Sequence record: OQ031072
Direction: 5' to 3' (one strand)
Length of the DNA: 64,000 nucleotides
Origin: Shigella phage SFPB
Both the position numbers and the translations under genes were made by a program. Below are positions 3,331-59,753 of the stretch, one piece after another (within the stretch, counting starts at the first letter, position 1; the number at the start of each line of letters is the position of its first letter). The notes beneath the pieces are model-generated. The model was not told where the DNA came from. It saw only the letters and a program-made list of their open reading frames with translations, and did no database searches.

Positions 3331-3588
3331 TTTTACTCCTCTCAAATCATTCTGGATAATACCCTACAGCAATTTTCTTCAAAAAGCAAGTTGACAAACT
3401 ACTTGACAAGGTGTTAGTCTTTTCGAAGTGGGTTTTATCTTAATAGACTCCCTTTATAGATTAACTATACAGTTTCTTTAAAAGTCTTAAAAGATTTTTA
3501 ATAGCTTTTAAAAAGCTTTAAAGTTATATGTATAACATACATAAAGATAAGAGATTAAAATCTTTATAGATACTTAACAGAGGCAATC

Positions 3589-33631: not shown

Positions 33632-33685
33632 TTGCATCAACGGGGCAAGATAAAGCCCCAACAATCCTAAACTGGAGAATCTAGA

Positions 33686-33892
33686 ATGTTATATCAACGG
33701 GAATTAATGATTGTAGACAATAACAAAACTAAAAAACGTCGCTTCTTTATGTTAATCTGTGACGTGTGGCAAAGAATATCTGAAAAGGATTATGACAAGT
33801 ATGTTGATACATCAATCAGGTCGGATTGTTATTTGACAAATCACACAAGACAGTTTACAAGACATACAGCAGTTTACTACTATGACGTTTAA
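33686..33892 (+). CDS. hypothetical small protein (cassette-driven)
   Basis: ORF track 68 aa; cassette + ATG. Confidence 0.45.
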   Translation: MLYQRELMIVDNNKTKKRRFFMLICDVWQRISEKDYDKYVDTSIRSDCYLTNHTRQFTRHTAVYYYDV

Positions 33893-33903
33893 AGGGCTTG
33901 ACA

Positions 33904-34065
33904 ATGATTAAAGAAGGCAATGTAATAAGCTACAAAGATTTAGACGGATACCCAAAAATTGGGAAAGTTTTCTACCTTTACAAGTCAGTGATGGATAATG
34001 ACTGCATAGCCCTAACAAATGGCGACAAGATAACCATGAAAGATTTTATAAAAATTATTTCATAA
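33904..34065 (+). CDS. hypothetical small protein (53 aa)
   Basis: ATG 33904; below track cutoff. Confidence 0.3.
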   Translation: MIKEGNVISYKDLDGYPKIGKVFYLYKSVMDNDCIALTNGDKITMKDFIKIIS

Positions 34066-34154
34066 AGTGCTTTACATGGGGTTTAAAAAGGTAGTATCTT
34101 AAGCCCCAGATAAAGAGCTTTACCACTAAACAATCCTAAACTGGAGATTCTAAA

Positions 34155-34538
34155 ATGAAAAAATATTATATGCCAAAATTCATCAAGAAAGAAAACTTTC
34201 GTGATGCTCTGGAAAAATACATGAATGAGCAGTTCAAAGGTAAATTAATTGTTGTCCACGCATACAATTTTAAGTATGATGTAAATGGAAACAAGACAAA
34301 TCACTATACCGCTACGATGCTGGATGGTACACTCTCAGGTGAAAAAGCCATTATCAATGCACTGGCTGGACGTGGTAAAACGTTGATACGTTGTGATAAA
34401 CGCCGATATCAGGGCAGTTCTTATGGTTATGAGGATGCAGTCTATCACCTTGATAACATGGGTTACAATGTCGAAAAAGCTGGCGTGTCTCAAATGATTG
34501 GTAGTGATGGATATGTGACAATTTTTAAAATTAACTAA
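34155..34538 (+). CDS. hypothetical protein (cassette-driven)
   Basis: ORF track 127 aa; cassette upstream. Confidence 0.5.
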   Translation: MKKYYMPKFIKKENFRDALEKYMNEQFKGKLIVVHAYNFKYDVNGNKTNHYTATMLDGTLSGEKAIINALAGRGKTLIRCDKRRYQGSSYGYEDAVYHLDNMGYNVEKAGVSQMIGSDGYVTIFKIN

Positions 34539-34625
34539 TAAAGTGCTTTACATGGGGTTTATAGTTCAATAAGATAAGCCCCAGATAAAGAACTTTATTA
34601 CTAACCTAAACTGGAGATTCAAAAA

Positions 34626-34883
34626 ATGGCTACCATTAAAAACATCGTAATTACTGCAAAATCCCGTGATGATGCTCGTGCAACTGCTAAAAAATTAAAT
34701 GGTAAAGTGGTTGACAACGGAAAAGATTCTACTGTAAGATGGGGCGTAAAGACAGACAAAAAATTAACTCTTAAACATAGCTCTTACAATATGTTTAAAG
34801 GTGTAAAAACTATCGGTAACACTAACGTGTTTACAAAACAGGGTTACAAAATGCACTTAGCATTAATTGGCAATTTAATCTAA
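34626..34883 (+). CDS. hypothetical protein (cassette-driven)
   Basis: ORF track 85 aa; cassette upstream. Confidence 0.5.
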   Translation: MATIKNIVITAKSRDDARATAKKLNGKVVDNGKDSTVRWGVKTDKKLTLKHSSYNMFKGVKTIGNTNVFTKQGYKMHLALIGNLI

Positions 34884-34889
34884 AAGTAC

Positions 34890-34918
34890 TTTACATGGGG
34901 TTTATAAGTCGATAGTAT
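34890..34918 (+). promoter_or_regulatory. cassette promoter TTTACA-N17-TAGTAT inside GGGG/CCCC stem-loop
   Basis: Representative cassette copy. Confidence 0.5.
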
Positions 34919-34969
34919 AAGCCCCAGATAAAGAGCTTTACCAACAATCCTAAACTGGAGATTCAAAAA

Positions 34970-35482
34970 ATGAAATCAGTCGAAAGCACCTTTGAAGTTC
35001 AAAAAGAAAAATTTACTATCATCTTTGAAGCAATGAATGTTTATGAGCCTTCCCATTGTGTGGATAACTGGCAATTCACTGATGAGCATAAAGGAGGAGT
35101 TACAATCAAAGTTAAAAACTCAGAACGTAACGGCTACAAATATGCAATTCCTATGCACTATGCGCTTTCACAGCTTGCCAGTGATTACGCAAAACAGGGA
35201 AGGGATAACCCATCATTAGCCGCTTACAAGAGCTTACAAGATGAACTAGAAAGGGATTTAGGGGCTAATAGCTACATTCTATACGCCTCAGTAGTTGACG
35301 CTGAAGGCAACACGGTTTTAAATAGTTTTTCCCTTGCGTATGGTTTTGATTGGTGCTATCTTGACGGGGAAGATTTAGATTCACGCTTAAAAGAGGAAGT
35401 AAGCAATTCAGGTGCTGAAGAGGAAGTTTTAGAGCGCTTGGAAGATTTAAAAGATAGTGTGATGAATATCTTTAATATCTAA
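34970..35482 (+). CDS. hypothetical protein (cassette-driven)
   Basis: ORF track 170 aa. Confidence 0.5.
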   Translation: MKSVESTFEVQKEKFTIIFEAMNVYEPSHCVDNWQFTDEHKGGVTIKVKNSERNGYKYAIPMHYALSQLASDYAKQGRDNPSLAAYKSLQDELERDLGANSYILYASVVDAEGNTVLNSFSLAYGFDWCYLDGEDLDSRLKEEVSNSGAEEEVLERLEDLKDSVMNIFNI

Positions 35483-35567
35483 AAGTACTTTACATGGGGG
35501 TTATCAAGTTGCTAAGATAGCCCCAGATAAAGAGCTTTACCAACAATCCTAAACTGGAGAATCTAAA

Positions 35568-35858
35568 ATGAAAATTCCTGCTAATGTACGCTCAAAGTTA
35601 AGCCAATTACTACAAAACATTTCTTTTGTAGAATCTCATAGACGTTCACAGGATGTTATAGAGTGGTATCATGGGAAGATTAACAAGAAAGAAGTTTTAA
35701 TCTGTATTTGGAACTTTCAAAAAGAACATGGCAAGCCATTGCTTCAGGTTGACATTTATGATAATACTAGCAAATCAGCAGTAAAATCAAAAGCTGATAT
35801 GATTGATTCATATGAAATTAGTCACACTGGTAGATTATCACACGTTGGGAAGGTTTAA
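35568..35858 (+). CDS. hypothetical protein (cassette-driven)
   Basis: ORF track 96 aa. Confidence 0.5.
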   Translation: MKIPANVRSKLSQLLQNISFVESHRRSQDVIEWYHGKINKKEVLICIWNFQKEHGKPLLQVDIYDNTSKSAVKSKADMIDSYEISHTGRLSHVGKV

Positions 35859-35859
35859 A

Positions 35860-36186
35860 ATGTTACTTTCTGGTATCGCAATTCTGATTTCAATTGTGGC
35901 GCTATGTAAAGCTTATCAAGCCTCAGCATATGCAGATAAGGCCATCACAAGGAAAGTTAAAATAAACCTTGTAAGTAGCTTCTTAGAGCGTTTAAGCGTG
36001 GAACAATTACAACGTTTAGAGATGGGCTTCAGGTTTAAGGCAGACACTTATCAAATCAGTGATGTTTTATCCGGTAACTTTGAGCTTGTTAATGATTACA
36101 ATACGTTACTAAATGCTATTCAAGCTACTGATTTAAAAGAATATTATCCGGCTATTGCACAAGAAATTAATAAACGCAAAAAATAG
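35860..36186 (+). CDS. membrane protein (N-terminal TM)
   Basis: ATG 35860 after GGAAGG; MLLSGIAILISIVALC (track start 35803 overlaps upstream gene). Confidence 0.4.
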   Translation: MLLSGIAILISIVALCKAYQASAYADKAITRKVKINLVSSFLERLSVEQLQRLEMGFRFKADTYQISDVLSGNFELVNDYNTLLNAIQATDLKEYYPAIAQEINKRKK

Positions 36187-36269
36187 CTTGCAAAGGCAAA
36201 TCAAAACAAGTAAAGTACTCATCAACGGGGCAAGCAAGCCCCCAACAATCCTAAACTGGAGAATCTAAG

Positions 36270-36542
36270 ATGTATACAACTAATAATGGCAGAACTTTAA
36301 ATGTAACTTTAAAGCACTATGTAGATGGTGTATTAAACTTTGAAGACTTGCAAGCAGAACAGCACTTGTTAGCTTGGCAAGTAGCAGGATTACAAAAAAC
36401 CGCCACCGGATATGGGAAGAAAATCCCTACATCTTGGAAAGTTCGATACCTTGGAAAGTTACGCAGAATTTATCAAGATGTTTACAGTAATAGTGGTGTA
36501 AGTTACATTATTGTTAGTGGTAAAAAGTTACATCTTGCTTAA
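36270..36542 (+). CDS. hypothetical protein (cassette-driven)
   Basis: ORF track 90 aa. Confidence 0.5.
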   Translation: MYTTNNGRTLNVTLKHYVDGVLNFEDLQAEQHLLAWQVAGLQKTATGYGKKIPTSWKVRYLGKLRRIYQDVYSNSGVSYIIVSGKKLHLA

Positions 36543-36629
36543 TAAAGTGCTTTACATGGGGTTTATAAGTCGATAGTATAAGCCCCAGATAAAGAACTTT
36601 ATCACTAACCTAAACTGGAGATTCAAAAA

Positions 36630-37031
36630 ATGGCTACGAACAAAGATATAGCAGTACTGAAAGCACGTTTGACCGTTAACCGTATTAATGCTATCACATC
36701 AACCGCACCAGATGAGGTTTTACATAACATTATCGGTAAAATTCAGGGTGTAATTTTAGACGTTGAAAACATCAGAAATTCACTTGCAAATGTTGCACAG
36801 GGTGTTACACTTGACGGCGCACAATATGAAATGGCTGATATGCTTTCAAAGTCAAAAGTTCTTAATAAAGAATTAGACTTGAAAATGTTTCGATTTGCTG
36901 TTAAAGTGTGGTTATCTGTTGAGTTTGATGCTAACTTTGCAATTGCTGATTTCTTTGCAACGTGGTTACAACGTAATTTAGAAAAGCAAGATTTTCAAGA
37001 TATCTGCGATACAATTTACGCAGAACTTTAA
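36630..37031 (+). CDS. hypothetical protein (cassette-driven)
   Basis: ORF track 133 aa. Confidence 0.5.
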   Translation: MATNKDIAVLKARLTVNRINAITSTAPDEVLHNIIGKIQGVILDVENIRNSLANVAQGVTLDGAQYEMADMLSKSKVLNKELDLKMFRFAVKVWLSVEFDANFAIADFFATWLQRNLEKQDFQDICDTIYAEL

Positions 37032-37127
37032 AAAACGTTTGACACTAATTTTTAGATAGATTAAAGTACTCATCAACGGGGCAAGACAGAAGCCCCAACA
37101 ATCCTAAACTGGAGATTCAAAAATGAA

Positions 37128-37679
37128 ATGCTTTCACGGAACTACTCAAGAAAATTTTGTAAACCTGCTGAGTGGTGGAGAAAACCTTCAGGGGCTTGGA
37201 ATTGCTCAGACAGTGACGGGTGTTTTTATGTTTACCCTGTTAGTAAGTTCTATGATGTAGAGGATATGGACGCAGAACAAATCACTGAAGAGGGTATTAG
37301 AAACGCTCTGGATAGCGCAAGTATCACAGCGGCTTTCCAGATGAAATCACAAAAAATCGTTATCTTGGAACTTGATATTCCAGAAGATGAATTACAAGAT
37401 GACTGGAGCTGTGAGAACATGAGCGATGTTGCAAGCTTTACAGAATACTTTGATAGGGCTTGGATTAAAAAGATTTACACAACTGAATTTAATGCTATGT
37501 ATGCACCGTTTTTTGTACCTAACTTGAACAATAGAAATCTGGGCTATGTACCTGATGAATTACATAACATTGCTGTAATGATTCAACGTAGCGATGAGAT
37601 GAATAACGTGTTTTGTGATTTGTGCGACAACTTGCAATCTAACATAACAGAAAGCACTGTAAGCGACGTTTTAGCGTAA
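37128..37679 (+). CDS. hypothetical protein (cassette-driven)
   Basis: ORF track 183 aa; cassette-spaced ATG at 37123 is in another frame, start uncertain. Confidence 0.45.
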   Translation: MLSRNYSRKFCKPAEWWRKPSGAWNCSDSDGCFYVYPVSKFYDVEDMDAEQITEEGIRNALDSASITAAFQMKSQKIVILELDIPEDELQDDWSCENMSDVASFTEYFDRAWIKKIYTTEFNAMYAPFFVPNLNNRNLGYVPDELHNIAVMIQRSDEMNNVFCDLCDNLQSNITESTVSDVLA

Positions 37680-37742
37680 ACCATACAATCACACTAACAA
37701 CATTCAAAAGCCCTGTATAGGGGCTTACAAGGGGTTTAAATC

Positions 37743-37979
37743 ATGTTAACGACTATCTATCTCATGCTTGCCGTTTGCTCTGGTGCAAATAATTGTCATT
37801 ATGGCATTATGGAATCTTTCGAAGGCACTAAACAAAATGCAGTAGAGGCTTGCAATATTGCTAGACAGGACTACCCGAAATCGTCTATAATGGGCTGTTA
37901 TGTCTTACAAGGTGAAGACGAAAGCACAGAATACTACGAAAACGTTAATGAAGATGAGTTTTTAGAGATTTACAAATAA
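37743..37979 (+). CDS. small protein with N-terminal hydrophobic segment
   Basis: ORF track 78 aa; MLTTIYLMLAVCSG. Confidence 0.4.
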   Translation: MLTTIYLMLAVCSGANNCHYGIMESFEGTKQNAVEACNIARQDYPKSSIMGCYVLQGEDESTEYYENVNEDEFLEIYK

Positions 37980-38053
37980 AGTACTTTACATGGGGCTTTA
38001 AACCTTGCTACTATAAGCCCCAGATAAAGAGCTTTCCTAAACTGGAGATTCAA

Positions 38054-38203
38054 ATGATGACGCATACTATTGAGACAGTTTTTAACAACCCTGTATTCTC
38101 AGAGATGATTTTCTCATTTATCATGATGTTACTAGTAAAAATCATGAAAAAAGCAGAAAAACTACATTTAAAGAAAAAATCTATTGTAAACCGTATTAAG
38201 TAA
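38054..38203 (+). CDS. small membrane protein (49 aa, cassette-driven)
   Basis: Cassette + ATG; hydrophobic core IFSFIMMLLV; below cutoff. Confidence 0.3.
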   Translation: MMTHTIETVFNNPVFSEMIFSFIMMLLVKIMKKAEKLHLKKKSIVNRIK

Positions 38204-38250
38204 AGTTACAGTATCTATCAAGCCCACTTCCTAAACTGGAGAATCTGAAA

Positions 38251-38592
38251 ATGGCACATGTAACCATAATTACTGATAAAGAAAATTCATCTTGGTCTAC
38301 AAAAGTAAGTGATAAAGTGTCGCCTTTACAGTGCCTAAAATACTTTGAGCAATGGAATCGCGGCGAGGATGTTAGCCCGTTTCATGTGATGCGTATAGTT
38401 CACACTGACAAAGAAGGGAATAAAACAACCTTAAACAGTGAATACTATGCAACACGATTTGAAACAAAAGTTAACACAATGAAAATATTACGTGAATCCG
38501 GCTATGGTCACATTGCCGCTTTAATCTGGAGTGATTTACTCAAAGACCAAAAAATGACCTATGTCAAGACAGAAAAAATCTTTATAAGCTAA
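38251..38592 (+). CDS. hypothetical protein (cassette-driven)
   Basis: ORF track 113 aa. Confidence 0.5.
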   Translation: MAHVTIITDKENSSWSTKVSDKVSPLQCLKYFEQWNRGEDVSPFHVMRIVHTDKEGNKTTLNSEYYATRFETKVNTMKILRESGYGHIAALIWSDLLKDQKMTYVKTEKIFIS

Positions 38593-38787
38593 TCAATGAC
38601 TTACAAAATTCTTTGAAAAAACTGTTGACAATACCCCTTGACATTGATAGATTTGTTCGAGGGGTTTATCTAAAAGGGATTCACTTAAAAGATTCTTTAT
38701 AGATAAGCGTAAAAAGTACTTGCAAAGGTCTAATCATATCTATATAGTATCTTCAAAAGGCAACTTCCTAAACTGGAGAATCACTAA

Positions 38788-38928
38788 ATGTTAGATATCA
38801 TTAAAAACCCTATCCTTTGCGGTATGATTGTCTCTGTTGTGTTGCCATTAGCAATACTCATCATTGGTGAAATCTCAGATAAACTTTTTGATAAAAAACT
38901 ACTTGCAATACAGAATCAAAACAAGTAA
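38788..38928 (+). CDS. small membrane protein (46 aa, cassette-driven)
   Basis: Cassette + ATG; below cutoff. Confidence 0.3.
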   Translation: MLDIIKNPILCGMIVSVVLPLAILIIGEISDKLFDKKLLAIQNQNK

Positions 38929-38992
38929 AGTATTTATCAACGGGGAGGAGACTTCCCCACTAAAACAAAATTCCTAAACTGGAGAATCTAGA

Positions 38993-39520
38993 ATGAATAA
39001 GTTCCAAGCAATTAATCATATCCGTTCCAATGCAGTAATGAGCAAGCCAGTAAAAGACACCTTCGAATTTCGCTGTAATGACAAGTTGTTTGCAGTCATT
39101 ACGAAAGGGGAAGATAAAAAGTATTATGTACATCGCCAAAACGTTAAGGCGGTAACAGCAGATAACTTTATGCAAGCTGTTGCAAAAATTCTACCGGATT
39201 TTATGGAACTGGTAGCAGAACTTTGTGAACACTGCATCAAGTCATCAAAGGCAGAATTAAACCGCTTTAAAATGGCTTATGAGCGTTCTATCAAGTCTCA
39301 TAACATGTATATCATGCCATTGGCTTTTGGTACTCAGGCAATGGGAACAGGTTGTCATCCTTGCCACCTTTACGATGTAGAAAGCATTTACCTTAGTGAG
39401 ACAAAAGATATTGATTTTAGTTTACAGTTAGGACAAGCATTAAACGATATGATTAAATTACACGAAAAATCCGTAAAAGATATGCAAAAAGAGCTTGACG
39501 AAATCATCGTAAATCTATAA
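38993..39520 (+). CDS. hypothetical protein (cassette-driven)
   Basis: ORF track 175 aa. Confidence 0.5.
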   Translation: MNKFQAINHIRSNAVMSKPVKDTFEFRCNDKLFAVITKGEDKKYYVHRQNVKAVTADNFMQAVAKILPDFMELVAELCEHCIKSSKAELNRFKMAYERSIKSHNMYIMPLAFGTQAMGTGCHPCHLYDVESIYLSETKDIDFSLQLGQALNDMIKLHEKSVKDMQKELDEIIVNL

Positions 39521-39580
39521 AGTACTTATCAACGGGGAGGGAATGACCTTCCCCAACAATCCTAAACTGGAGACTAGAAA

Positions 39581-39844
39581 ATGAATAATCAAGAAATCAC
39601 TATCCTGTTACAAATTGGCACTGACAAAGAAGATATCCAACTTTGCAAACGTATTGAGAGTGATTGGTTCAACGGTGAAATCATCGCAGAATCTTATGAA
39701 GTAGTTGGATTCATGAATGGTGAAGTTGTAAGCCATTTTGGTTTAACTAAATCTGAAGCCGTTGCAAAGTATGACGTTTTATCTTGTGAGATTCTTACAA
39801 AATACAATGAAAAAAGACTTGCAACTTATGCAGCAATGAATTAA
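39581..39844 (+). CDS. hypothetical protein (cassette-driven)
   Basis: ORF track 87 aa. Confidence 0.5.
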   Translation: MNNQEITILLQIGTDKEDIQLCKRIESDWFNGEIIAESYEVVGFMNGEVVSHFGLTKSEAVAKYDVLSCEILTKYNEKRLATYAAMN

Positions 39845-39907
39845 TATTACTTTCAACGGGGAGGAGACTCCCCACTAAAACAAAATTCTAAACTGGAGAC
39901 TAGAAAG

Positions 39908-40084
39908 ATGAATTTTGAACAGCGTATGATTAGTAAATTTGGTGCTAAACGTTGGGAAGAGATGAAAAAAGAGCACGAAGAAAGAAAAAATGAAGAAACG
40001 GTAGTTATCACTGGTGTAGACTTACTAAATCACTCAGTTACTAACTATATCTTATCTGGTAACTCTTATAAGAAAGTTATCTAA
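39908..40084 (+). CDS. hypothetical small protein (58 aa, cassette-driven)
   Basis: Cassette + ATG; below cutoff. Confidence 0.3.
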   Translation: MNFEQRMISKFGAKRWEEMKKEHEERKNEETVVITGVDLLNHSVTNYILSGNSYKKVI

Positions 40085-40156
40085 TAAGTGTTGACAAGGG
40101 GTGTAAAAGCCCCTACTATTTAGAACCTAAACAATCCTAAACTGGAGAATCTGAAA

Positions 40157-40408
40157 ATGGCTACTATCCGCGCAACTGTTAATAATTTTGGCTTCCACGT
40201 ATTAGATGTTAAATTCGATATGGTTGGAACTGCCGATGCTTTCGGCATGGTTGATATGTGTCTAAAAGCAACTATTCAGGACTACAATCAATCTGAGTGG
40301 TTCTGGAAAGAAGTAAAACAAGAAGTCTTAAAGGATGGCGTATCCTCTTACTATTGGGGTGATTCTCTTATCACGCTTTACTATGAAGTTGACGGCTTCA
40401 ATAACTAA
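40157..40408 (+). CDS. hypothetical protein (cassette-driven, last of array)
   Basis: ORF track 83 aa. Confidence 0.5.
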   Translation: MATIRATVNNFGFHVLDVKFDMVGTADAFGMVDMCLKATIQDYNQSEWFWKEVKQEVLKDGVSSYYWGDSLITLYYEVDGFNN

Positions 40409-40449
40409 CAAGACGCCGCAACGGGGCAAATAGCCCCAGACCCTATACA

Positions 40450-40472
40450 AGCCCCTTCAATGGGGCTTTTTG
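40450..40472 (+). terminator. rho-independent terminator
   Basis: AGCCCC-TTCAAT-GGGGCT + TTTTT. Confidence 0.7.
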
Positions 40473-42017
40473 ACGTCTATACAATCTCTTTCTAGACTCT
40501 TACCAGACATTTAGAATAATAACTCTATAGATTACTCTATAACCTCTTATCAAATCAACTAACTTTTCCCTTAAATATAAGCCCATAACCCGAAAGGGAA
40601 GGGCAATCCCTAAAACGCTCTATAACGCTCTATACGGGCTTATCATCTCATCTTAAGCAATCATATTAAACCATTCTTAAAAGCCCTTCATAGAGCTTTC
40701 TAGAGCCTTAAAAGAATCTTATAAGGATATAAGCTTTATTATCTCGTTAGTATCTTGTGAATGGTTAAACAGGGGCTTGATAATAGCTTTAAAGTATGTT
40801 ATGGAGACTAAAAAGAGCTTAAAAGTAACGTAAAAGATGCTTAAAAGTAACGTAAAAGTTAGCCCCCTTTACATTCTCTTAACAAAATCTTAACAAATGC
40901 AACATAGTTATGCTTATTAGAGACTTGTTAAGCCTCAGTTAAATCCTTGTTAGAGGTATGTTAAAAGCTTGTTAGACACTTTGAAGTCCCTGTATAAGCC
41001 CCTAGAAAGCCCTATAAAGAGCTATACAGGTATTTGGGGTGTAGTTACTAGGGAGAATCTTAGAAGAGGCTATACAGAGCTACAGAGAACTTTTAAGAGG
41101 GCTTTATAGAGAATCACTAAGAAGGGAAGGGAACTATAGACCAAGAGATAGTGACCATGTTAATAGCTTGTTAAAAAGGTTTAGAACTTGTTAGCATCTT
41201 GTTAATTATCTTAACAAAATAACTATTAAGATTTAACTATTTAGCAACTTATAAGCAACTTGTTAGATTCTTGTTAGTAATGTTACAGAATGGTTAAGTT
41301 CTTGTTAGTTCTGTTAAGGGATTGTTAAGAACTCTGAAGAGATGTTAAGAGCTTGAGAGAGTTGTTAAGAGATTGTTAATGATATTTTAAGATTTTGCAA
41401 AGGGGATGTTACAGGGCTGTTAAGGGCTACCAAGCAGATATACACCCATGAGGTAGATTCTACCGAATCCACTAGTAGATATTTTTAGATTCTCCAAAGA
41501 CCCTAAAAAGTAACCTACCTAGTCTATTTTATAAAAATTTTATAGAACTGAATAACTATCTATACACTATCTTATATAAAACAGGAATTAACAGGCTTAT
41601 AAGATACCTTGTTAGTACCGTGTTAGACCTTGTAGGATAAGCCTTTACAGGGAATACCTGTTTAGTGTTATATAACAGTCTATATAGAGGCTTAGTTGAC
41701 CCTAGTGAACCATCTATAGAGAGTACTCTCTGTGACATAGAGATTAAGATGGATATAGGGGCTTCTAAGGGGCTATGAAGAGACTAGGAAGGTGATTATA
41801 TAGGTTTGGAAGAGGGCTTGTTAGAGAGCTTTGTAGAGGGCTATTTAGAAGGGGCTATATAGTTTCACTAGATAGAGACTAAGAGGCTATATAGATACTA
41901 TATAATACTATATAGAGAGTATGCTTAGATAGGTTGTTTAGAAGGTCTAGATATTTTATCACATATCATGGTGACCCAAGATGAACGGAGTGAATCCAAA
42001 TTTTATAAAATAATAAA
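40473..42017. repeat. ORF-free repeat-dense region; candidate origin or terminus-associated region
   Basis: No credible ORF; many short repeats (CTTGTTAG/TTGTTAAGA family, GCTATA(T/C)AGAG family); bounded by convergent terminators. Confidence 0.5.
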
Positions 42018-42036
42018 AGCCCCAAAAGAGGGGCTG
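42018..42036 (-). terminator. hairpin terminator at end of minus-strand operon
   Basis: AGCCCC-AAAAGA-GGGGCT with A-run on plus side. Confidence 0.5.
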
Positions 42037-42044
42037 TAAAGTTC

Positions 42045-42710
42045 TTAGCAAAGGTTATCTATGACAGCCTGAATAGCTGGAATAGTTGTGTGATAAAAAT
42101 GAGTGTTTCCGTTATGGGCTTCTCTCACTTGTAACATGATAGAGTGACCCTTTACAGGGAAGCATTGAATGTGATAACGATTCCCGTTAAATACTACTCC
42201 ACCACCTGAACAGAACCCTTCCAAGACTGACTTAGCAAGGAACTCTTCTTTCCCTGTGACCTTTATGAAGACACCCCTGTTAACTTGTGAATGGTAAATG
42301 TCTTCCATAAACAGCATCTGTTGTCCACCAAGTGAAACCATAGAGATACCTTTACGATTCTGCTCTTTAACATATATCTCAAGTTTCTTCAAAGTCTCTT
42401 CATAGAACGGATAAGACTTCTTCACAAAGATACCTTCAAGTGGCTCATCACCAGCATCTTCACGTTCATCTTTAAGTCTCTCTACAAGACAATTAAGACT
42501 TCTTCTCTCGCTATCGTCAAGATACTTATTGATATCTTCCAAGCTAAGTACCAAGTACTTTCTCTCTAAGTTAAATTCTTTGGTCATCTCTATCAAATCC
42601 TTAAAAGCTTTTTCAGTAACCTTCTTCCATTCTTCTGAGTTCTTCTTCTGAGGGAGTACCATATCTCTCAAGAACTTGAAACTCTTCTTCAGACGGGCTT
42701 CCATAATCAT
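42045..42710 (-). CDS. hypothetical protein
   Basis: ORF track 221 aa. Confidence 0.45.
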   Translation of the reverse strand: MIMEARLKKSFKFLRDMVLPQKKNSEEWKKVTEKAFKDLIEMTKEFNLERKYLVLSLEDINKYLDDSERRSLNCLVERLKDEREDAGDEPLEGIFVKKSYPFYEETLKKLEIYVKEQNRKGISMVSLGGQQMLFMEDIYHSQVNRGVFIKVTGKEEFLAKSVLEGFCSGGGVVFNGNRYHIQCFPVKGHSIMLQVREAHNGNTHFYHTTIPAIQAVIDNLC

Positions 42711-42715
42711 ACTCT

Positions 42716-43174
42716 TCAGAAATCGATTCTGTAGTCTGAACGGCTATAGTTTGCTGTAATGAATCCATCGTAACCTACCAACCATCTTCCATAGGTGTTA
42801 AAAATTGAAGTGTTATCAGCACTCATAATATCACCTTCATAGCCTAAATCGTCAATCTCTCTAACAAGCTTAATAGAGCCGACTGTTTCACCTGTTGGTG
42901 CATGTTTGATGATGTATACACGATTTAATTTACAATCTTCTTCTTCTTCACGTAAATCATATGGCTTCAGTAAATCTCTATCTGCTTGTAAGTTGGACTC
43001 TGAAAAAGCTGCATGAACCATGTAAGCTTCTGAACACTCCCAGATAAAGCTATGAAGAAGAACCTTTGCAGCATTTCTTGAACAATCAAATTCTGCAACG
43101 ATATCTTTGTACATGTCATCTTTAGTTCCGTTGTTAAGCAAAGCTTTACGGACTACCTCTTTAACATTCTTCAT
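42716..43174 (-). CDS. hypothetical protein
   Basis: Track ORF 169 aa; likely start MKNVKE at 43174. Confidence 0.4.
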   Translation of the reverse strand: MKNVKEVVRKALLNNGTKDDMYKDIVAEFDCSRNAAKVLLHSFIWECSEAYMVHAAFSESNLQADRDLLKPYDLREEEEDCKLNRVYIIKHAPTGETVGSIKLVREIDDLGYEGDIMSADNTSIFNTYGRWLVGYDGFITANYSRSDYRIDF

Positions 43175-56861: not shown

Positions 56862-56937
56862 AGCTCAATTAGCTTATATGGTTAAAGCGCGTGTCTGAAA
56901 AACATGAGAACAGGGTTCAAATCCCGATGGGCTACCA
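56862..56937 (+). tRNA. tRNA-Phe (anticodon GAA)
   Basis: Loop CTGAAAA; A73; CCA; T-stem weak. Confidence 0.5.
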
Positions 56938-56953
56938 ACTTTATAGGTGCATA

Positions 56954-57688
56954 ATGAAAGAGATGACAGAACAAAGTAAAGAGATTTTTAATCTCCTTAA
57001 AACCGGTAATGGTTTCTCAAACCCTCTTATTACTGGTGCAGCAGTTCTTGGTGGTACAGTTGCCGCTTCTCAGTCATTAGTAACTTCTATTGGTTCTGTA
57101 TCAGACCCAGCCACACAGCAAATTCTTATTGCTGCTGGACTGACAACAGCCTTATTAGGAAGCTTCACAACAAGCCTTGGAAGTACAACTTCAACGACAA
57201 GTACACTCACTGAGTATGGACAAAAGTCTGTAGATGAGTTTTCACAGCGTATGCAGGTAGCTAAAGGCTACTCTAACGTCATGGGAGCAGTAGGTGAGCA
57301 AGTTGGATGTACACCATTTAGTGGCATTATGGGTGTAGCTACTGAGTACGGCAATAAAGCGATGGATTTGATTAATACCTCCATAGACGCTGTAAACAGC
57401 GTTCTAAGCGATTTGCAAGATGCAATCGATAAAGGACTAGGGACAATCTCTGAACTCGCTACACAGGCTGTTACAGCGATTAATGAGGGCATTGCAAAGA
57501 TTACTGCATATGCTAACGAAGTAGCTCAGATGATTGCAGATGAAGCAGCATTGATTGCAGAATACCTGAAAACAAATATTAATGGTTTCCTTGCAAATGT
57601 TCTACCAAGCTGGTTTGATGATTCATGTAAAACTGGTGTGATTGATACTATTGCAACTCCAGAGATGAAAGAAGCTCTGAACAAATAA
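56954..57688 (+). CDS. hypothetical Ala/Ser/Thr-rich protein with N-terminal hydrophobic segment
   Basis: ATG 56954 just after tRNA-Phe (track start 56891 overlaps tRNA). Confidence 0.45.
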   Translation: MKEMTEQSKEIFNLLKTGNGFSNPLITGAAVLGGTVAASQSLVTSIGSVSDPATQQILIAAGLTTALLGSFTTSLGSTTSTTSTLTEYGQKSVDEFSQRMQVAKGYSNVMGAVGEQVGCTPFSGIMGVATEYGNKAMDLINTSIDAVNSVLSDLQDAIDKGLGTISELATQAVTAINEGIAKITAYANEVAQMIADEAALIAEYLKTNINGFLANVLPSWFDDSCKTGVIDTIATPEMKEALNK

Positions 57689-58082: not shown

Positions 58083-58289
58083 ATGAACGAGACTAATGTT
58101 TACAAAGAACTATATGAAACTCAGAAACAGGCTCAGATGCTTCAAGCAACTGTAATGGCTGTGGCTGAACGTTTAATTGTTGCAACTGGTATTAATCCAC
58201 AAGAAGCAACGATGGATAAACTTCTTAATTTAGTAGATGAAAAGTTTGGTGTAGAACCTAAACAGGAATCTGAAGAAGTTTCTGAATAA
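58083..58289 (+). CDS. hypothetical protein upstream of terminase
   Basis: ORF track 68 aa. Confidence 0.4.
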   Translation: MNETNVYKELYETQKQAQMLQATVMAVAERLIVATGINPQEATMDKLLNLVDEKFGVEPKQESEEVSE

Positions 58290-58295
58290 TTCTAT

Positions 58296-59753
58296 TTGCA
58301 GAGGTGCTTAATGGACTTAAATGTTATTAAGCAGAAGCGAGTGGAAGATGTAAGGAAAGTCCTAGCAGGTGAGTTGGGGCTTTCTGAAGAAGTAAAAGAT
58401 ATTATCAAATCCTTTGGTAAAGACCCCTCTAAATTCCTTCCAACTCAAATTCTGACTTTATTAAGGTACACCCCAGACCAAGTAAGACTCATCTTTAAAT
58501 TGATGACTGACAAGAACTATGTAGCTCCACAGCCTGGCTCTCAAGAGGTATTCTTGAACACTAATGCTGACTTGGTACTATATGGTGGTGCTGCTGGTGC
58601 TGGTAAGACTGCTGCCCTATTAATGGACTCACTAAGGTTTATTGAAGACCCAAACTATAACGCTGTTTATTTCCGTCGAAATACAACACAGTTACAAGGT
58701 GGTTTGTGGCCTGCGGCTAAGAAGTTATTTGGTAAGTTTGGTGGAGTTCCACATGAACAGAAAATGACTATCACTTTCCCTTCTGGAGCAACTATCAAGT
58801 TTACTTATTTGGAACTTGAGAAACACTCAGAAGGTCACCAAGGTATCGAATACTCAGCTATTTATTTCGACGAAGGTACACACTTCTCGGCTTCACAGAT
58901 TTCATATCTTCAGACACGTTTACGTTCTGGTGCTGAAGGTGACTCATATATGAAAATCTCAATGAACCCAGATAGAGACCACTTTATTTATGATTGGGTA
59001 GAACCTTTCCTAGATGATGCTGGATATCCAGACCCAGAGAAGTGCGGTAGGATTCGTTGGTATGTTATGAATGATGGTGTCATGGTTTCTGATTGGGATA
59101 GAGATAAAATTCTTGAAATGTTCCCTCTTGAGATTCCTCAAACATATACCTTTATTTCCGGTACAATTGATGACAACCCTATTCTAGATTTCCTTGAACC
59201 TAAGTATCGTGGTAAATTAGAAAACAACACACCAGTTAACGTTGCACGTTTACGTTTTGGTAACTGGAAAGCTCGTGCTGAAGGTTCAAACTATTGGCAA
59301 AGACAATGGTGTGAAATTGTTGATAGTGTTCCAGCAGATGTATTTGACGTAAGAGCATGGGACTTAGCAGCAACATTACCTTCTGAGGTTAACCCTAACC
59401 CTGACTGGACAGCAGGTGTTAAAATGGGTAAATCTAAAAAAGATGGTTGCTATTATGTGATTAACGTAGTAAGATTTAGAGATAGACCTTCTGGAGTTGA
59501 AACACAAATTAACCAAACTGCTGAAGGTGATGGTAAGCGCACAGGTATTTTTATCCCTCAAGACCCCGGCGCTGCTGGTAAATCCTACGCAACCTCCTTA
59601 TTAGAAAACTTGCTGAGAAAGGTTTCCGAGCAAGAGCTAAACCAACAAATAAAGATAAAGTCACCCGTTTTGCGGGTTTCTCTGCTGCTTCTGAGGCAGG
59701 ACTTGTCAAAATTGTTAGAGGCTCTTGGAATGAAGCATATTTCCAAGAACTAG
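58296..59753 (+). CDS. terminase large subunit (ATPase domain), frame-disrupted before nuclease domain
   Basis: Walker A LYGGAAGAGKTA; DPGAAGKSYA motif; frame ends in atypical sequence while terminase C-terminus continues in -1 frame. Confidence 0.8.
   Translation: MQRCLMDLNVIKQKRVEDVRKVLAGELGLSEEVKDIIKSFGKDPSKFLPTQILTLLRYTPDQVRLIFKLMTDKNYVAPQPGSQEVFLNTNADLVLYGGAAGAGKTAALLMDSLRFIEDPNYNAVYFRRNTTQLQGGLWPAAKKLFGKFGGVPHEQKMTITFPSGATIKFTYLELEKHSEGHQGIEYSAIYFDEGTHFSASQISYLQTRLRSGAEGDSYMKISMNPDRDHFIYDWVEPFLDDAGYPDPEKCGRIRWYVMNDGVMVSDWDRDKILEMFPLEIPQTYTFISGTIDDNPILDFLEPKYRGKLENNTPVNVARLRFGNWKARAEGSNYWQRQWCEIVDSVPADVFDVRAWDLAATLPSEVNPNPDWTAGVKMGKSKKDGCYYVINVVRFRDRPSGVETQINQTAEGDGKRTGIFIPQDPGAAGKSYATSLLENLLRKVSEQELNQQIKIKSPVLRVSLLLLRQDLSKLLEALGMKHISKN

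Follow-up and report, generated by a model that had tools for sequence, protein, structure and literature searches.

A gene-free locus of Shigella phage SFPB is homologous to the direct terminal repeat of Felix O1-like phages and contains mirrored, helically phased hexamer arrays

Felix O1 was earlier inferred to carry short terminal repeats, and direct terminal repeats (DTRs) have been described in several phages of its type. In UAB_Phi87, unique ends were located by Bal31 digestion and run-off sequencing, which gave a DTR of 608 bp (PMC4837284); the repeat is printed as AACATTTTCTTAACAA...GATGTTAAGGGCTACCAA (PMC4837284 Fig. S1). PhageTerm yielded DTRs of 581 bp in Pr103Blw and 613 bp in Ro111lw, and short DTRs are also reported in Kolesnikvirus; the pattern in these relatives is an approximately two-fold coverage over the repeat with peaks of read starts at its edges (PMC8303462, PMC6454146, PMC11984208). 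The TerL of Felix O1-type phages, Citrobacter and Erwinia phages included, has been placed in a DTR clade, the 'Felixounalikevirus DTR group' (PMC4837284), and according to published accounts TerS is not recognisable in these phages. More generally, each junction in the concatemers of exact-DTR phages contains a single repeat, which is duplicated in the course of cutting and packaging by terminase (PMC5000459). The role of TerS has been reviewed (PMC13595956). The existence of a DTR at the genome ends of Felix O1-like phages is already known.

Two other kinds of packaging site bear on the present locus. At the R sites of lambda cosB and at pacL/pacR of SPP1, several short boxes lie on one helix face beside the cleavage site. 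The T7 repeat is also flanked by short-repeat arrays (SRL/SRR) of unknown function.

We analysed a 64,000-nt stretch of DNA from Shigella phage SFPB (OQ031072), hereafter the window. A first-pass annotation had singled out positions 40473–42017 as an ORF-free, repeat-dense region where two transcription blocks converge, and had proposed that it is a replication origin, a packaging- or terminus-associated region, or a structured non-coding locus. In megablast, the region matched 253 phage records, every one a Felix O1-like myophage (Ounavirinae). The closest were Mooglevirus: Shigella phage Henu11 (93%), followed at 87–91% by 3HA14, Sf13–Sf19 and the Citrobacter phages Michonne, Mordin and Moogle. 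The source of the window is a Mooglevirus/Felix O1-like myophage of the Ounavirinae. Its genes include those for DNA polymerase, primase-helicase, exonuclease, NrdA/B/D, NAMPT, rIIA/rIIB, TerL (58296–59753; phrog_979), portal and protease, and it encodes 25 tRNAs.

The description of the region as ORF-free and lying between converging blocks was upheld. On its left, a run of small plus-strand ORFs ends at 40408; on its right, a minus-strand block extends from 42045 to ~49000 (first ORF, 42045–42710). The only ORFs of at least 40 aa inside the region, 40969–41109 (plus strand, TTG start, 46 aa) and 41556–41738 (minus strand, 60 aa), are broken in most of the 20 relatives aligned, through stops or frameshifts; in 8 of the relatives the homologous stretch has no ORF of at least 40 aa. 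RNA folding and the annotation of relatives agreed that both blocks are terminated at the edges of the region, and a terminator scan found the minus-strand site:

40423–40472, plus strand: two tandem hairpins closing the block of small early genes, the second an intrinsic terminator
42005–42035, minus strand: intrinsic terminator closing the minus-strand gene block (scan match 42035–42018)

The plus-strand terminator (40449–40472) has the form AAGCCCC-UUCAAU-GGGGCUU followed by a U-run and folds at −26.5 kcal/mol (z = −4.1), its T-run lying slightly below the threshold of the consensus scanner. The minus-strand terminator (42035–42018) folds at −12.2 kcal/mol (z = −3.1). In the Michonne and Mordin records, the sites homologous to both are annotated as terminators.

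The identity of the region was established by comparison with relatives whose ends are recorded. In a sensitive search, several records started exactly at query position 390, which is 40862 in the window, and had a second match in the same record. The records of vB_CbrM_HP1 (Mooglevirus) and of I14.1 and ZX4221 (Felixounavirus) carry exact terminal repeats of 570, 581 and 591 bp, respectively, with 0 mismatches, and the repeats from these two genera all map onto 40862–41431. In the HP1 record, a repeat_region is annotated at both ends. Erwinia phage M7 (Kolesnikvirus) has an exact terminal repeat of 444 bp, again with 0 mismatches, whose boundaries are homologous and shifted by 2–3 nt.

The UAB_Phi87 data were compared with the same boundaries. 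The deposited record of this phage is not opened at the ends, so the ends were taken from the supplement of the paper. The homology-mapped DTR is 614 bp; the printed repeat starts 8 nt inside it on the left and runs 2 nt past it on the right (614 − 8 + 2 = 608). From the homology boundaries, terminal SpeI fragments of 2747 and 4435 bp are predicted, and the Bal31-sensitive SpeI fragments were reported as 2819 and 4322 bp (PMC4837284). Predicted and reported sizes agree within 3%, yet they lie 72–113 bp apart, which we counted against the assignment. Also counted against it were the divergence of the relatives from which the ends were deduced, which are 75–93% identical to the window, and the variation of the exact cut positions by 2–8 nt among methods: the relatives' methods place the left virion end at 40859–40870 and the right end at 41431–41433.

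By homology, these comparisons demonstrate that 40862–41431 is the counterpart of the Felix O1-like short DTR, held as a single collapsed copy of roughly 570 bp. Relative to the described DTRs of this type (UAB_Phi87, 608; Ro111lw, 613; Pr103Blw, 581; vB_CbrM_HP1, 570; M7, 444 bp), the sequence is homologous, and the boundary motifs, the length class and the location match, with the small-gene block of the rII side to one side and the minus-strand block to the other. Nothing essential differs; the window holds one collapsed copy. Of the proposals in the first-pass annotation, the packaging- or terminus-associated region was the one that proved correct, the virion DNA ends of the relatives mapping at 40862 and 41431. 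As close relatives have a documented DTR, the finding, although real, is an ordinary one.

A search of the window for a second copy of 40862–41431 found none. The single copy lies between the unique sequences of the right and left ends, which indicates that the window represents the genome as circularised or at a concatemer junction, the form into which assemblers usually collapse DTR genomes. Mature virion DNA would begin at ~40862, extend rightwards through the entire genome and finish at ~41431, with the segment present at both ends. For annotation, homology fixes the physical start and end of the genome at about 40862 and 41431, and the assembly, being collapsed, is one repeat copy (about 570 bp) short. 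The parts of the locus, with the virion placement of the flanks as predicted from these ends, are as follows:

40473–40861, no strand: non-coding flank on the left; unique sequence that adjoins the right-end DTR copy on its inner side in the virion
40523, 40535, 40618 and 40628, plus strand: CTCTATA in the left flank
40676, 40707, 40818 and 40840, plus strand: CTTAAAAG in the left flank
40811–40858: 22-bp tandem in which TAAAAG recurs with an 11-bp register as far as the DTR edge
40862–41431, no strand: DTR homolog, 570 bp, corresponding to the exact terminal repeats of relatives
40862–40897, minus strand: left sub-terminal array, GCCCCC then TTTACA/TTAACA/TTAACA in an 11-bp register (minus-strand TGTTAR at 40879 and 40890)
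40926–40975, plus strand: TGTTAR block A (40926, 40948, 40959 and 40970; spacings 22, 11 and 11)
40985–41150, no strand: central DTR segment free of TGTTAR, with AGCCC, GCTATACAG and CTTTATAG units
41158–41216, plus strand: TGTTAR block B (41158, 41169, 41189 and 41200 forward; 41211 reverse)
41261–41431, plus strand: right sub-terminal TGTTAR array (41261, 41272, 41303, 41312, 41323, 41343, 41363, 41374 and 41418)
41445–41483, no strand: hypervariable spacer directly outside the right DTR boundary (conservation 0.24)
41484–42012, no strand: non-coding flank on the right; unique sequence that adjoins the left-end DTR copy on its inner side in the virion
41524–41546 and 41610–41626: right-flank elements, an invariant AT-rich 21-mer and a phased TGTTAG pair, respectively
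41683, 41715 and 41911, reverse orientation only: CTCTATA in the right flank

Taken as a whole, the region is very probably the chromosome terminal region of the phage, a DTR whose ends would be cut under the guidance of repeat arrays. Its internal architecture is the sole part that might deserve follow-up.

The count of over 12 copies of a CTTGTTAG/TTGTTAAGA motif given by the first-pass annotation was accurate: the region contains 8 and 5 exact copies, respectively, or 13 together, and the entire window 16 and 6. The TGTTAR core occurs 24 times in the 1545 bp of the region against 3.5 expected (binomial p = 1e-13). Twenty of these 24 copies lie inside 40862–41431, and the hexamer array is essentially coextensive with the DTR. 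The right sub-terminal array also has TGTTAC at 41281 and 41407. Each relative's DTR carries 16–22 forward and 3–6 reverse TGTTAR copies. The M7 repeat retains the array, with 16 copies in 444 bp, though its sequence is otherwise unalignable.

A second motif, GCTATA(T/C)AGAG, had been given about 10 copies. This number stands for a loose core only, the strict 11-mer occurring once (41069). The 4 copies of GCTATAYAG in the window all fall in the region; the loose core CTATA[CGT]AG is found at 8 positions in the region, which holds 12 of the window's 17 strand-matches. The palindromes noted among these copies are real, as four loose-core sites are CTATATAG palindromes (41680, 41855, 41887 and 41908). 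Units of the CTTAAAAG type recur in two other intergenic regions, so this part of the repeat vocabulary is not end-specific.

The hexamers are helically phased. The dimer TGTTAR-N5-TGTTAR occurs 9 times in the 64 kb, all within 40879–41626, with 0.09 occurrences expected. Within blocks, adjacent TGTTAR copies are spaced by 11, 11, 11, 20, 11, 11, 9, 22, 9, 11, 20, 20, 11, 33 and 11 bp. The global Rayleigh periodicity over all TGTTA positions of the DTR is moderate (R about 0.5) because the arrays form separate blocks, and the local spacings are more informative. Read inward 5' to 3', both virion ends as located by homology present G..GCCC followed by TTAACA-type hexamers in an 11-bp register. 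TAACA offsets are 8/19/30 from the left end and 10/21/(32)/(43)/54/65 from the right end. Such mirror-image 11-bp registers are present in four phages: HP1, I14.1, ZX4221 and, shifted, M7; in the first three, TAACA again lies 8, 19 and 30 from the end. The two ends are 1–2 nt off perfect symmetry, which we counted against the pattern.

The flanks are polar. Both are tiled by units of 10–12 bp, with opposite polarity, those of the left flank being in a single orientation. CTCTATA, forward at its four left-flank sites, is reversed at 41105, 41683, 41715 and 41911. The polarity of AGCCC versus GGGCT switches near 41050, in the central DTR segment, as does that of CTCTATA. Local GC skew flips in accord with this switch, near 40750–40950. 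In M7, the flanks have an equivalent layout built from a unit of their own, CTTCTAAG tiling the left flank and TGTTAAGA/GGTTAAGA the right.

The locus is also conserved above its neighbours. Among 21 sequences, which are phylogenetically related and in which the neighbouring genes are fast-evolving accessory genes, conservation of the non-coding locus was 0.81–0.84 as compared with 0.57–0.61 for the flanking ORFs. The left flank averaged 0.81 against 0.61 for the adjacent ORF, and the right flank 0.81 against 0.57. In the identical search mode, 68 records covered at least 80% of the locus and 17 covered as much of the adjacent 2 kb of coding sequence. Within the DTR, hexamer bases were conserved at 0.94 versus 0.80 for the other bases (p = 1e-12; 21 sequences), and nearly all bases of block B, which lies where the DTR is most AT-rich (GC 0.23–0.25), were invariant across relatives. 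Conservation was strongest precisely at the two cut sites. The left boundary (TA before the cut, GCCCCCTT after it) and the right boundary (GGGCTACC before, AAGCAGATATACA after) are invariant in 21 relatives, and alignment with the Erwinia Kolesnikviruses is still possible only over 41343–41444, which spans the right boundary. By contrast, the window has an insertion of ~30 bp in the hypervariable spacer 41445–41483.

The lengths of the DTRs are quantised. Among relatives they range over 567–623 bp, with clusters at 570 + n × ~10.8 bp (R = 0.81 for unique lengths; p ≈ 0.002). No selection need be invoked, as this quantisation could arise by slippage of tandem 11-bp units. The papers on Felix O1-like DTRs cited here report that the repeat exists and how long it is, or print its sequence (PMC4837284 Fig. 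S1); the mirrored phased arrays, the polar flanks, the conservation above that of genes and the length quantisation are undescribed in them.

These features suggest a model for end formation. The TGTTAR/TTAACA hexamers, in a helical register of ~11 bp, would begin 8–10 nt inside each end and in opposite orientations. The arrays probably serve as a scaffold bound by whichever component of the packaging machinery recognises the ends. With TerS not recognisable in the group, this component could be TerL or some small subunit. Since the boundaries are mirror images, the same kind of complex could act at each and nick opposite strands at the two boundaries, which lie 570 bp from each other. Two complete ends would then arise by strand-displacement synthesis across the repeat, as in the classical T7-type model. 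Also part of this nucleoprotein site would be the conserved flanks, whose motif arrays are oppositely oriented, and the pair of inward-facing terminators; together they would exclude transcription from it.

In its most specific form, the model states that the mirrored TTAACA arrays are the recognition code of a TerS-less terminase, with one complex per repeat edge and with a DTR length of whole helical turns keeping the two in register. We offer this tentatively, as a possibility short of probable. Boxes near both cuts were observed, and a TerS gene was not identifiable, either among the neighbouring ORFs searched with PHROGs and Pfam or in the 68-aa ORF upstream of TerL. Specifically, a search of 20 neighbouring ORFs for a DNA-binding or TerS candidate (PHROGs, Pfam) returned only proteins of unknown function. 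The 68-aa ORF (58083–58289) is conserved, belongs to phrog_4397 (unknown function) and has no Pfam match; its AlphaFold model predicts a plain two-helix hairpin (pLDDT 80). We counted both results against the model.

The described packaging sites resemble the locus in part. As in T7, T3 and SP6, the repeat is a gene-free exact repeat of a few hundred bp, present once per concatemer junction, duplicated during packaging and delimited by precise, sequence-specific cuts (PMC5000459; PMC13595956). Unlike T7, the phage is a myovirus with a TerL of a different clade (PMC4837284), without a phage RNA polymerase and without a recognised small terminase. Its transcription blocks run towards the junction from both directions and end in terminators there, in contrast to the one-way transcription of T7, and its repeat is 3–4 times longer and itself made of phased hexamers with mirror-image ends. 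With cosB- and pac-type sites, the locus shares the arrangement of boxes expected of a DNA-wrapping recognition protein. It differs from them in having no identifiable TerS homolog, two cut sites 570 bp apart with oppositely oriented arrays, and far more boxes (about 20), and in that an IHF site was not found. The locus is an unusually legible short-DTR junction, with invariant cut sites, ~20 mirrored phased hexamers and polar flanks, and could suit study of how terminases recognise and duplicate exact terminal repeats.

The main live alternative concerns mechanism and leaves the identity of the DTR unaffected. The arrays may act at the DNA ends otherwise than in terminase recognition, for example in protection from RecBCD after injection, in the pairing or recombination of repeats into circles or concatemers, or in the control of ejection. 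Such a non-packaging role, in end protection or end pairing, is compatible with the mirror symmetry: both virion ends present an identical inward-reading array, as a protein that binds or pairs ends would require. The lack of a recognisable TerS in the Felix O1-type group also speaks for it, as does the presence of CTTAAAAG-type units in two other intergenic regions. Nevertheless, the phased TGTTAR dimer was confined to the region in the 64 kb scanned, and the strongest conservation falls exactly at the two cut sites. We regard a role apart from terminase recognition as rather unlikely.

It is less likely still that the locus is, or includes, a replication origin in which phased iterons bind an initiator and AT-rich patches unwind. 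The arrays resemble the iterons of lambda ori and of plasmid origins in being direct repeats at helical spacing beside AT-rich DNA, and iterons phased at 11 bp fit an origin or another DNA-binding role equally well. Patches with a GC content of 0.23–0.25 at 41150–41300 and about 41500–41600, the invariant 21-mer at 41524–41546 and the local GC-skew flip near 40750–40950 would also suit an origin, but neither phased repeats nor AT-rich patches are diagnostic of one. However, a DnaA box with up to 1 mismatch was not found anywhere in 40473–42017, nor was an IHF consensus. The adjacent ORFs have no initiator-like (Rep/O-like) match, and the polymerase and primase-helicase genes lie 34–40 kb off. 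Moreover, the hexamers recur at 11 bp, whereas origin iterons are typically 17–22 bp, and the mirrored arrays are anchored on the two cut sites at the genome ends and not on an unwinding element. GC skew, which had been suggested as a check, changes sign in the window solely where gene orientation switches; because it tracks gene orientation, it is uninformative on replication. With 0 DnaA boxes and no adjacent initiator-like gene, the origin proposed in the first-pass annotation gained no positive support.

That the locus encodes structured non-coding RNAs or small proteins is scarcely credible and was rejected: nucleotide conservation is high without long ORFs, a few consensus stems beat column-shuffled controls and small ORFs are annotated here in some relatives, but no Rfam family matches inside the region, the stems are invariant and lack compensatory changes, both ORFs are broken in most relatives, the terminators face inward on both sides and promoter-like matches are at chance level. 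In a sigma-70 promoter scan, there were 10 matches against 9.2 expected. A sliding RNAalifold analysis of 21 relatives was compared with column shuffles, a lenient null for palindromic DNA, and only the two terminators were strong. Elsewhere, consensus folding energies reached only −4 to −10 kcal/mol per 140 nt; the remaining weak stems correspond to never-varying inverted repeats in the DNA, so the structured non-coding locus of the first-pass annotation did not hold up. The small ORFs annotated inside the region in several database records are spurious. An Rfam scan of 39500–43000 at an E of 1 or less gave no match inside the region; a single sub-threshold match, to U3, fell outside 40473–42017.

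Units of the CTTAAAAG, CTTTTAAG and GCTTTAAAG types, with a spacing of ∼11 bp, occur in the two divergent intergenic regions of the window and resemble the units that flank the direct terminal repeat (DTR) on its left. Both regions are candidates for a regulatory or origin-associated role, and their units indicate that some of the repeat vocabulary is genome-wide. In phage garuso (MN850566.1), the depositors marked as repeat_region, without comment, both the left sub-terminal TTAACA array, just inside the left DTR end, and a right-flank TAAGAAGG(T/A)TGT tandem. The repeats of the DTR region had therefore been noticed earlier but left uninterpreted.

Repeat features in the window and in two relatives
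3478-3530, divergent intergenic region between DNA polymerase and the next plus-strand gene, CTTAAAAG/CTTTTAAG/GCTTTAAAG-type units
49955-50063, divergent intergenic region upstream of the RNA-binding protein/tRNA block, CTTAAAAG/CTTTTAAG/GCTTTAAAG-type units
MN850566.1 1864-1893 and 2914-2947, repeat_region annotations of garuso, made by the depositors
JN225449.1 15152-15765, repeat locus of UAB_Phi87

Directly outside the right DTR boundary lies a stretch of ∼30-39 bp (41445-41483) found in this window alone; the relatives are hypervariable at the matching site. The stretch appears to be partially duplicated from the GTAGAT(A/T)T motif after it.

A different repeat, the 14-mer AACAATCCTAAACT, was found nine times on the plus strand of 33660-40143 (eight copies exact; 0.9 expected at ≤2 mismatches), and every copy directly precedes a small early ORF's RBS. 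In Mordin, whose record carries copies of this type as repeat_region, a GGGGC...GCCCC hairpin preceded the 14-mer in all five copies inspected. The sites look like a reused intergenic cassette that combines a hairpin with a translation-initiation region. The 57-bp repeats described in the Felix O1 paper are probably related to it.

The figures published for UAB_Phi87 are not entirely consistent with one another. Its terminal SpeI fragments, as reported, total 7141 bp (2819 + 4322), versus 6568 bp for the junction-spanning SpeI fragment in JN225449.1, indicating a repeat of ∼573 bp, not 608 bp. The genome is 87,669 bp in the paper versus 87,603 bp in the record, a gap of 66 bp and not of one repeat.

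Two database records are anomalous. Phage I14.1 (PP892526.1; 89 kb) is classed in GenBank as a Tequintavirus (Demerecviridae), but its genome and DTR are both Felixounavirus-like. The 147-kb record of "Staphylococcus phage SA1" (GU169904.1) contains a match to the Felix O1-type locus studied here with 97% coverage, which suggests that the record is chimeric or contaminated.

The slot just before TerL is the usual small-terminase position. In the window, it holds a conserved 68-aa ORF (58083-58289, plus strand) that stops 6 nt ahead of TerL. This ORF belongs to phrog_4397, of unknown function, had no match in Pfam and was modelled as a two-helix hairpin (pLDDT 80). Its homologs are named "Tail fiber assembly protein" in UniRef, a label that looks doubtful given the ORF's position and size.

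Finally, the tRNA cluster encloses a 265-aa ORF (56891-57688, plus strand; DUF7217, phrog_2114), which overlaps tRNA-Phe (56862-56937) at its GTG start and runs right up to tRNA-Ser (57690) at its stop.
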